Origin: an uncultured Enterobacterales bacterium
GTDB taxonomy: Bacteria > Myxococcota_A > UBA796 > JAFGLY01
Assembly: GCA_964512185.1 (NCBI GenBank)
Contig: CAZEJJ010000011.1
Span: forward strand, 5,131-69,130
Length of the DNA: 64,000 nucleotides
Reading direction: 5' to 3'
Of this stretch, positions 1,331 through 4,300 are shown in pieces. The notes under the pieces are model-generated. The model had not been told where the DNA came from and did no database searches. It saw nothing but the letters and a program-made list of their open reading frames with translations. The translations under genes and the position numbers were made by a program. Every line of letters starts with the position of its first letter. Position 1 is the first letter of the stretch.

Positions 1331-4300
1331 TCGATGGGGGGCCGCAGGGCGGGCACGGGGACGCGGCGCGGGAACTGGTCGGCCCGCTCCAGGGCCTGTG
1401 CCAGGTCCGCGTTCGGCGCGGCCTGCTCGTCGGTCGGGGGCGCGGGCTCGGCGGGCGCAGGTGTGGGCGCCGCGGCGGCTGCCAGGTTGGGCCTGGCCTC
1501 GCGCACGAAGCGGACCACGTCCTGCAGGGTGGGGTAGTCCTGCAAGCTGAGGTCGTCGCCGGTCGGGATCTGGAACTCCTCGCGCAGGGTGGCGAAGGTC
1601 TCGGCCTGCTTGACGGTGTCGATGCCGAGGTCGGCCTCCAGGTGGAGGTCCAGCTCCAGCATCTCCACGGGGTAGCCGGTCCTGTCGGCCACGATGCGCA
1701 GCACCTGGGCCGCCACGGGGTCGGCCGTGGGCTCGCCCGGCTCCCCGGTCTGGTCGGCCGGGGGCGCGGGCTCGGCGGGCGCAGGTGTGGGCGCCGCGGC
1801 GGCTGCCAGGTTGGGCCTGGCCTCGCGCACGAAGCGGACCACGTCCTGCAGGGTGGGGTAGTCCTGCAAGCTGAGGTCGTCGCCGGTCGGGATCTGGAAC
1901 TCCTCGCGCAGGGTGGCGAAGGTCTCGGCCTGCTTGACGGTGTCGATGCCGAGGTCGGCCTCCAGGTGGAGGTCCAGCTCCAGCATCTCCACGGGGTAGC
2001 CGGTCCTGTCGGCCACGATGCGCAGCACCTGGGCCGCCACGGGGTCGGCCGTGGGCTCGCCCGGCTCCGGCCCTGCTGCCGGCACCTCCGGCGCTGTGAC
2101 CGCAGGCGTGGGAGCCTCGGGCGCGGGTGAGGCAGAGGCGGCGTGCTGCCCGCTGGCGAGCGCGGGCACCGGAGTGATCGGCCGCAGGGCCGCCGGGGTC
2201 GGCTCGGGGGGCTGCGGCGCGGCGGGGCCGGAGCGCTGCTCGAGGTTCGGCTCGTCCAGCCGGCTGTCCTCGGCCAGCAGGGGCTCCGGCGAGGGCGCCA
2301 GCTCCTCGAGGCCGGCGGGGGAGGGGACCGCCATGGGCGCGGGTCGCTGGTAGCCGGGGGCGAGATCCCCGTGGCTCGCCCGGGTGCGGGCCCTCGGGGC
2401 CGTGCCCTGACGCCAGCCGCTGGGCTCGGGCGAGCGTGTGGGCGGGCCCTGGTCCTCGATCCGCAGCGCGCGCTTGACCACCTCGGTGGTGGCGCGGTCG
2501 TAGCCGCTGACACGGGCCAGCCAGTGTTCGTACCGGGCCCGGTCATCGACGCGGTCCACGGAGCCCGGGATGCGGCGCACCAGGCTCATGGCGATCTGGG
2601 AGCCGAAGCCGGCGGCCAGGCGGATGGCGTACTGCACCGGGTACCAGCCCCCACGGCTCAGGTTCAGCATGCCCAGCTCGGGGTCCACCTCTCTGAAGTT
2701 GGGCACGGGGGGCACCACGCCGTGCTCCAGCGCCTTGACCGCCACGACGTCCTCGATCCCCACGCTCATGGGGTGGCCGGTGAAGCCCTTGGTGTTGCAG
2801 ATCACGATCTGGCTCACCGCGTCGCCAAAGACGTGCCGCAGCGCGGCCACCTCGGCCGAGGCGCTGCCACCGCGGGCCGGGGTGAAGGTCTCGTGCGAGA
2901 CGAACACGGTGTGCTGGGCCATCAGGCGCCGGGTGATCCCGTAGCGCCGCTCCGCCGTGGTCACCAGCCGGTCGAGGACCTGCCCGATGTGCTGCACGTC
3001 CAGGCGGGTGCCGTGGAAGGAGCTGTTGCACTTCTCGGTGCTCAGCAGCTCCACGATGCCCCGCATCCCGCGCTCCCGCAGCGCGTCCTCGCTCTCCACC
3101 ACCAGGGCGCTGCAGCCCATGCCCATCAACATGCCATGCCGGCGGCGGTCGAAGGGCAGGGCGGCCTCCTCGATGGCGTCGTCGGTGGCGGCGGCGCCCG
3201 CGGCCAGAAAGCCGGCGCCGAGCCACTCGAGGAGGTTGTCGCCCGTGGCGTTGTCCGCCGCGATGACCACCACACGCTGGCAGCGGCCGGCCCGGATCCA
3301 GTCTTCGGCGATGGAGATGGCCTGGGCCGTGCTGGCGCAGGCCGCGTTGACCTGGGTGTTGGGGCCACGCGCGCCGATGTACTCGGCGAACTGGGAGTGG
3401 CCCATGGCCAGGATGCGGAACAGGAAGCGGCGGTCGAACTGGAAGGGATCGGCGGCCAGCTCCTCGCGCAGCGCACCACAGCGACGTTGGATCTCCAGCG
3501 CGGTGTCCGGGTCCCTGGTGTACAGGCGCAGATCCTCGAGCTGCTCCAGCTGCTCCTGCTTGCTGCGCCAGCCGTGGTAGCGCTGCAGCTCGTCGGCGAA
3601 GCGGTCGTAGCCCGGGCCGGCGGGGGCTACCACCCCGCGGGGCGCCCCCCCCCGCGCCCCCGGCCGCGCCCCGCGGGGGGCCCGCGCCCCGCCGGCGCTG
3701 GTGCGCCTGTAGCTCCGCACCAGGGGGATCCCCGCCTCGCGCAGGGCGTCGATGCCGGCGGCCATGGCCAGCTGGGTGGTGATGTCCAGCGCCTCGACCA
3801 GCTTGGCGGGGACCCCGTACTCCTCGCTCAGATCGAAGGTGCCGGGCCGCCCGGCCAGCCTGATGACCGCGTCCTGGTGGTCGATGGCCTGGAAACGCCC
3901 GGAGCCGTCCTCGCCCTTGACCAGCCGAGTCACCTGCTTGGCCAGCATGCTCTTGCGGAAGCGCTGCGGGACCAGGTCGATGAACTGCTCGCCGCGTAGG
4001 ATGCGCTTGACGTTGTCCGGATCCATGACGGGCTTCTCGGCTCCGGGGAGGCCCAGGCCGGTGCCGCTGATCACCACGGAGCCGAGGCTCTCCTGGGCGG
4101 GAGCGGGGGCGGGCGCCGGCTGCAGGCGCTCGATGGCCTGGAGCAGGACGCGGCCCAGGTCTTCCACCGGGTCGCGCTGTGGCTGCGCAGTGGTGGCGCG
4201 CTGCGGCTCTGTCACGGGGGCGCTCTGAGGCTCCTTCGCGGCGGCGCGCTGCGGCTCCTTCGCGGGGGCGGCCGCCGGCTGTGTGGGCGCGGCCTCGTAG

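Follow-up and report, generated by a model that had tools for sequence, protein, structure and literature searches.

A family-wide threonine at the phosphopantetheine attachment site of carrier domains in a PfaA-like 'Type R' lipid synthase

Introduction

Carrier proteins hold their 4'-phosphopantetheine arm on a conserved serine, and the site definitions of PROSITE and Pfam assume that residue; to our knowledge, every known acyl carrier protein (ACP) has Ser for the cofactor arm. Here we consider a gene for a large lipid synthase whose carrier domains have Thr at this position. It lies at the start of a stretch of 64,000 nucleotides (the window, by which we mean the whole of the DNA analysed) from an uncultured Enterobacterales bacterium, placed by GTDB in the Myxococcota_A (NCBI GenBank assembly GCA_964512185.1, contig CAZEJJ010000011.1, positions 5,131 to 69,130 of the forward strand).

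Shulse & Allen (2011, PLoS One 6:e20146, PMC3098273) described a closely matching system, the 'Type R' secondary lipid synthase cluster, in which a pfaA homolog with the domain order ketosynthase (KS), malonyl acyltransferase (MAT), chain length factor (CLF), three to six ACPs and ketoreductase (KR) is followed by a gene for a phosphopantetheinyl transferase (PPTase), with an acetyl-CoA carboxylase gene between the two in Koribacter. The cluster was described from five genomes of Acidobacteria, Elusimicrobia and Chloroflexi (Roseiflexus), and its product is unknown. In the synthases of polyunsaturated fatty acids (PUFA), the number of tandem ACP copies scales throughput (PMC3098273). Work on carriers has used the change from Ser to Thr as a dead control (PMC3340395). 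The gene in the window belongs to the Type R cluster, a cluster type that is thus already known; what sets it against the usual picture is the residue at the attachment site, which we followed from this one gene into a very large family.

Results

Threonine at the attachment site

Both carrier domains of the window synthase contain the same stretch of 16 residues (minus-strand translation of 1965-1918 and 1641-1594), in which Thr stands at the place of the expected Ser. An earlier note on this DNA, made from the letters alone, had claimed this replacement for 1491-2050, an interval that takes in both carrier domains, and translation together with gapless alignment to ACPs bears it out; the codon is ACC in both copies, GGT on the plus strand, exactly where that note had read it (Table 1). 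Pfam recognises both as PP-binding domains (PF00550), with 35.6 bits for one domain and 57.0 bits for the protein against a gathering cutoff of 20.8. In phmmer comparisons with solved ACPs the gapless alignment puts the Thr on the Ser that is pantetheinylated, which lies in DLGVDS and DLGIDS in the PigH ACPs, in DLDVDS in the fatty acid synthase ACP of S. coelicolor and in DLGADS in the B. subtilis ACP. An AlphaFold2 model built with 28 family sequences (mean pLDDT 87.2) predicts a four-helix ACP with Thr36 as the first residue of helix II (residues 36-50), and its top Foldseek matches in the Protein Data Bank (PDB) are all ACPs, with template modelling (TM) scores of 0.70-0.81.

The residues invariant across the family's carrier domains are T15, G16, Y17, L22, E29-G33, D35, T36-E41, R47, L60 and T65, and the attachment motif is the most conserved section of the domain. 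A modified Ser elsewhere in the domain, or Ser at this site in close homologs, were the two findings named beforehand in the earlier note as contrary to it; the family alignment has no conserved Ser elsewhere in the carrier domain, and the close homologs are without Ser at the site. The note had also proposed alignment to homologous synthases as a check, and this gave Thr throughout: the conserved Ser acceptor of PF00550 is replaced by Thr in both window copies and in every one of the relatives' 269 domains.

Invariance across the family

The relatives come from a scan of genome loci with one genome per species, which gave at least 600 motif matches, 575 of them confirmed, and from which 80 loci were kept (handles of the form L015 refer to these loci). 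Together with two loci fetched earlier they hold the 269 carrier domains, whose Thr is encoded by ACG in 131, ACC in 116, ACA in 11 and ACT in 11. The 80 loci represent Chloroflexota, Acidobacteriota, Myxococcota, Actinomycetota (including an Amycolatopsis isolate), Gemmatimonadota, Elusimicrobia, Leptospiraceae and Lysobacterales, that is, more than six phyla.

Searches starting from different parts of the protein gave the same picture. With a single domain as query, all 74 close relatives have Thr and the same 13-residue motif around it, and the next 28 matches are ACPs of PUFA or heterocyst-glycolipid type with DLGIDSIKRVE. A search with the KS2 domain found Thr in 39 of 39 carrier motifs among the matches listed, and a family-consensus query into which Ser had been put at the site retrieved Thr motifs only (117/117). 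When 1.84 billion cluster representatives were searched exhaustively with HMMER, 7335 matched at E<=1e-3, of which 1668 reached E<=1e-30. Among the best 150 of the 7335, about 114 are Thr-type; these include the variants DTVKQVE, DTVKQAT and DTVKQVA in proteins of 2200-4040 residues.

Carrier copies within one gene are 57-100% identical at the DNA level and all keep Thr, even those at 57-70%, and gene conversion between copies is therefore rejected as the cause of the invariance. Taken with the synonymous codon use, the pattern points to purifying selection for Thr in the family. Because the Thr is invariant family-wide, chance and sequencing error are excluded. The Thr observation is confirmed, and it holds beyond the one gene for a very large family.

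Serine-type relatives of the same architecture

Ser is found at the same site in proteins closely akin to the family. P0420 (3234 residues, MCY3414055.1) has the order KS-AT-KS2-carrier x5-KR-DH (AT, acyltransferase; DH, dehydratase), the same architecture as the Thr-type synthases, and shares with them the carrier framework TGYP...EADLGID.VK.AE; it differs in having Ser-type carriers (DLGIDSVKVAE) and in a PPTase that is fused at the C-terminus rather than separate. It is annotated as coming from a metagenome-assembled genome of Candidatus Heimdallarchaeota, an odd assignment for a bacterial-type synthase that may reflect transfer or binning. Both residues occur side by side in a family member known as a fragment of 534 residues (P0437), the first domain of which has Ser (DLGVDSIKQAE) and the next two the Thr form of the 11-residue motif. 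Of the Ser-type domains, those nearest to the window domain (DSIKKAQ type) share 49% identity with it in an alignment without gaps and have Ser exactly at the Thr position. Within one architecture family, the attachment site itself thus alternates between Ser and Thr.

The synthase, its only carriers and the linked transferase

The synthase gene begins on the minus strand with the ATG at 7110 (MHSKVERAV...) and continues past coordinate 1, with 2370 residues inside the window. The Thr codon and the G+C content at third codon positions (GC3) gave us its coding frame; this is open over 7.1 kb with a GC3 of 0.93, in sequence of 71% GC, and two mechanically listed minus-strand open reading frames (1233-2546 and 2543-4525) proved to be wrong frames of this GC-rich sequence. 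Pfam gives the domain order KS, AT, KS, PP-binding x2, KR, and on inspection the catalytic motifs of KS1, AT, KS2 and KR are all intact. Full-length relatives are about 2800-2900 residues long (2906 in Kouleothrix, L015; 2792 in Amycolatopsis, L082), are organised as KS-AT-KS2-(carrier)n-KR-DH and have one to six carriers per synthase.

The Thr-type domains are the only carriers that we could find in these proteins. Pfam detects no further PP-binding domain in the full-length L015 and L082 synthases, and when all loci were scanned for the motif in six frames, none of the synthases had a Ser-type carrier motif. The same scan led us to reject a hidden Ser-type carrier elsewhere in the cluster, its one hit being an unrelated motif outside the synthase in L049.

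An acyl-CoA dehydrogenase gene lies upstream in 52 of the 54 loci with sufficient flank (tblastn over the loci), and downstream in related loci are genes for an acetyl-CoA carboxylase, fused or split, and an Sfp-type PPTase. Of the 58 loci whose downstream flank reaches 9 kb or more, 54 have the PPTase gene, 53 of them on the strand of the synthase; it follows the synthase directly in 40 loci and the carboxylase in 14. The linked PPTases match PF01648 with 66.5 and 81.7 bits (cutoff 25) and have the invariant motifs GxDxE (D113, E115), SxSH (H94) and WSxKExxLK (E157, K161). A single PPTase sequence gave no match among solved structures; the family profile did, to Sfp (1qr0/4mrt, E=8e-13) and to human AASDHPPT.

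Directly after WSxKExxLK the PPTases of the Thr clusters have a near-invariant GLxxDTR (for instance those at 13300-13998 in L015, 18903-19703 in L061 and 21458-22255 in L003). The PPTase of P0420 has GLKTEIS in its place, and Sfp reads GLSLPLD there. From one Ser-type comparison only, this hints that GLxxDTR could be a determinant of Thr specificity.

Some Acidobacteriota loci also have genes for the electron-transfer flavoprotein subunits EtfB and EtfA and for an FeS/CCG-domain oxidoreductase upstream of the acyl-CoA dehydrogenase (790-4744 in L003; also L028, L061, L076 and L078), genes that neither the Chloroflexota loci nor the window has. This suggests that in those Acidobacteriota loci the pathway's flavoenzyme step is coupled to the electron-transfer flavoprotein.

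Does the threonine carry the arm?

We consider it probable, though well short of certain, that the Thr-type domains are working carriers, pantetheinylated on Thr by a dedicated PPTase, where both the modification and the specificity of the transferase are deduced from the genes. On this proposal the carriers would belong to an iterative PfaA-like lipid synthase of the form KS-AT-KS2-carrier(n)-KR-DH in which Thr, not Ser, attaches 4'-phosphopantetheine. The Sfp-type PPTase encoded downstream would take the arm from CoA and attach it to the hydroxyl of the Thr at the N-terminus of helix II, and the AT would load the arm with malonyl units that come from the acetyl-CoA carboxylase of the cluster. 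KS1 and KS2, KR, DH and the acyl-CoA-dehydrogenase-like flavoenzyme, the last in a putative role, would then act on the tethered chain. Why Thr should be used is a matter for speculation: it might insulate the carriers from the housekeeping enzymes AcpS and AcpH, protect the phosphodiester better against beta-elimination, or limit the freedom of the arm.

Four lines of evidence favour a modified Thr. A synthase with intact KS, AT and KR motifs has no carriers but these domains; a PPTase is linked in 54 of the 58 complete loci; Ser and Thr alternate at the same site in the same architecture family; and the domains, which are tandem-amplified as in PUFA synthases, are most strongly conserved at the attachment motif.

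Several points weigh on the other side. In the system studied best, the S36T mutant of E. coli ACP 'cannot be post-translationally modified by 4'-PP' and is non-functional (PMC3340395), so Thr is not an acceptor for PPTases in general; the change there is the same but engineered, whereas the natural family keeps its Thr under strong selection and has a PPTase of its own. Linkage to a PPTase is typical of Ser-type PUFA clusters too and by itself does not point to specificity for Thr. Moreover, four of the 58 complete loci have no PPTase within 10 kb, and the window stops inside KR, so that the position of any PPTase in the window locus lies beyond it and the linkage is read from related loci. 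Finally, in the literature searched, including searches for the motif string, for KS-AT-KS clusters and for Ser-to-Thr carrier mutants with Sfp, we met no precedent for pantetheinylation on Thr. In that literature, Thr at the attachment site of carriers appears to be unreported; it is probably functional.

The S36T mutant, locked in the apo form, and the missing precedent also speak for the main competing explanation, in which the Thr domains are never pantetheinylated and serve as structural, docking or regulatory modules with an ACP fold, while the synthase uses substrates that are CoA-bound or otherwise delivered; the acyl-CoA dehydrogenase would likewise use CoA thioesters, and its family does normally act on acyl-CoA. 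Yet a synthase with intact KS, AT and KR and no other carrier would then have nothing to tether its intermediates, and the linked PPTase would, but for the Ser-type motif outside the synthase in L049, have no other carrier-like substrate in the 20-kb loci. Nor would one expect of such modules that the attachment-site motif, DLG[IV]D-T-VKQAE, be invariant, that the domains be amplified in tandem one to six times like those of PUFA synthases, or that sister proteins carry Ser at the same site, and on balance we think this explanation improbable. The earlier note had left the choice between a modified Thr and a docking or scaffold role; the evidence favours the former, and we found nothing that supports the latter.

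It is less probable still, and indeed very improbable, that the arm or another prosthetic group sits on a different residue, such as the Thr in the TGYP loop or that in the PTL turn, and that the Thr of helix II is structural only. T15 and T65 are invariant as well, but they do not lie at the N-terminus of helix II, where all PPTase-carrier complexes present the acceptor, and it is around T36 that the DLGxD motif recognised by PPTases is perfectly kept and at position 36 that sister proteins have Ser. We see virtually no chance that an error in sequencing or assembly produced the Thr, or that the gene is a decaying pseudogene. The same gene does hold a local assembly artefact (see below), and the two copies are no independent witnesses, being identical over the domain, so that the two Thr of the window count as one observation. 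The earlier note thought an error unlikely since both copies agree; the argument against an error comes from several hundred assemblies and genomes of isolates, independent of one another, each of which has Thr at this site and among which its codon varies synonymously, and from a frame open at high GC3 over the whole length given above. Error and pseudogene are thus refuted by the family-wide data.

We therefore return to a Thr that carries the arm. A stronger form of this proposal, which we hold to be about evenly balanced between right and wrong, is that O-(4'-phosphopantetheinyl)-threonine is a natural modification, that the enzymes making it form a clade of Sfp-type PPTases adapted to Thr and recognisable by GLxxDTR, that it is the sole carrier chemistry of a very large multi-phylum PfaA-like family from soil, sludge and sediment, and that the change from Ser to Thr makes these carriers orthogonal to AcpS and AcpH.

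Features and quality of the window sequence

The coordinates of the synthase, its domains and the adjoining features are collected in Table 1.

Table 1. Features of the synthase gene and its surroundings in the window.
Feature	Position	Residues	Strand	Basis and remarks
PfaA-like 'Type R' secondary-lipid synthase gene	1..7110		-	Open frame, GC3, Pfam, relatives L015/L082
KS1	5869..7092	7-414	-	Pfam PF00109/PF02801; DAACASS (6477-6457) with the Cys, HGTST and NIGH each with a His
Acyltransferase, malonyl-type	4459..5304	603-884	-	PF00698, 139.5 bits; GHSLG and HAFH motifs
KS2, ketosynthase-like	2446..4092		-	Pfam; Cys in NAACAST, two His (SHETF, GFTGH)
Probable local assembly or gap-fill artefact inside KS2	3615..3688		-	Alignment to 7 homologs; contigs L001/L002
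Carrier domain 1 (Thr-type)	1828..2031	1694-1761	-	Pfam PP-binding, PDB alignments, AlphaFold2 model and Foldseek; 11-residue motif at 1956-1924
Carrier domain 2 (Thr-type)	1504..1707	1802-1869	-	Pfam PP-binding, 35.6 bits; 11-residue motif at 1632-1600
Thr codon ACC, copy 1	1939..1941		-	Canonical phosphopantetheine attachment position
Thr codon ACC, copy 2	1615..1617		-	Canonical attachment position
Tandem DNA repeat	1429..2068			Tandem Repeats Finder; period 324 bp, 2.0 copies, 99% identical; encodes both carrier domains and Pro/Ala linkers
Ketoreductase, cut by window edge	1..675		-	PF08659; NADP motif TGAAGGI, catalytic Tyr in YAAAN
Acyl-CoA dehydrogenase-family gene, 545 aa	7128..8765		-	Pfam; directly upstream of synthase, same orientation

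The two repeat units differ at nine bases, all in the linker and none in the carrier domain. A carrier pair at least 98% identical is found in 8 of 73 loci, and the complete identity of the window carriers may reflect concerted evolution or a longer array that was collapsed in assembly, in which case the true copy number would be higher. Within KS2 the artefact is a stretch of G and C only, which encodes 30 residues in place of 29 that are conserved in the family. L001 and L002, contigs assembled independently from the same population, follow the window only as far as 3688, beyond which they have normal homologous sequence (...SAGGQLPAGW) before they break off; both share the upstream gene of the window (exact-protein look-up) and both stop inside the synthase. 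We regard the stretch as a probable local assembly or gap-fill artefact. Neither it nor the identity of the carrier copies affects the Thr. KS2 also has an insertion of about 60 residues (about 40 in the homolog alignment) ahead of the active-site Cys, which is missing from some homologs (for instance P0125); more than 900 homologs of KS2, from many phyla, are found at E<=1e-10.

Elsewhere in the window we noted a UvrA-like protein of 1813 residues (30703-36144, minus strand) in which domains of the ABC ATPase and UvrA interaction/DNA-binding types are duplicated. Two paralogous AAA/STAND-like ATPase genes of about 520 codons (14150-15715 and 16925-18505, plus strand; AAA_22, AAA_16, AAA_35) have an HTH_17 gene between them, as taken from the called genes of L001. 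Two long open reading frames of high GC3 (9703-11724, 673 residues, and 22324-24324, 666 residues, both on the plus strand) have no Pfam match at E<=1e-3.

Discussion

If the Thr does carry the arm, a new modified residue would be added to carrier chemistry, and it would come from a widespread natural family with a fixed Thr and a PPTase of its own. Should the cognate PPTase prove specific for Thr, the pair could be used as an orthogonal PPTase and tag system for protein labelling and pathway engineering, and the specificity would explain a possible failure of orphan Type R clusters when expressed heterologously with standard PPTases such as Sfp. Such an explanation would in turn be of practical help toward finding the unknown lipid of these clusters in Chloroflexota, Acidobacteriota, Myxococcota and Actinomycetota.

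Among characterised carriers the closest relatives are those of PfaA, which have DLGIDSIKRVE against the 11-residue Thr motif of the window and are identical to the window domain at 25 of 67 positions in a gapless alignment. The PfaA proteins of PUFA synthases (TIGR02813) resemble the family in the order KS-MAT...tandem ACPs-KR-DH and in the linkage to a PfaE-like Sfp-type PPTase. TIGR02813 is the best curated model for the window synthase, with a score of 861.6 that is below the cutoff of 1010.1 for a query cut at the window edge. The family differs from PfaA in the extra KS2 between AT and carriers, in Thr for Ser and in having no PfaB, PfaC or PfaD partners, the place of the PfaD enoyl reductase being occupied by the acyl-CoA dehydrogenase. 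With canonical carriers (PF00550; E. coli AcpP and the PigH ACP didomain, 5y08) the domains share the four-helix fold and DLGxD-X at the start of helix II; they differ in the Thr at the acceptor position and in a helix II that begins TVKQAE, compared with the more acidic S(L/I)D.VE type.

The comparison with the Type R clusters is closest of all. Architecture, neighbouring genes and taxa match, and the order KS-MAT-CLF/KS-ACP(n)-KR is the one found in the window. The 2011 description gives three to six tandem ACPs, against two copies in the window that are possibly collapsed in assembly, and the domain that it called CLF here keeps the active-site Cys and two His. The words serine and threonine do not occur in that paper (PMC3098273), and the Thr site was not noted there. 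To its picture of the cluster we add the C-terminal DH of polyketide synthase type, the acyl-CoA dehydrogenase upstream and, in some loci, the electron-transfer flavoprotein and FeS genes, together with a distribution far wider than the original five genomes.

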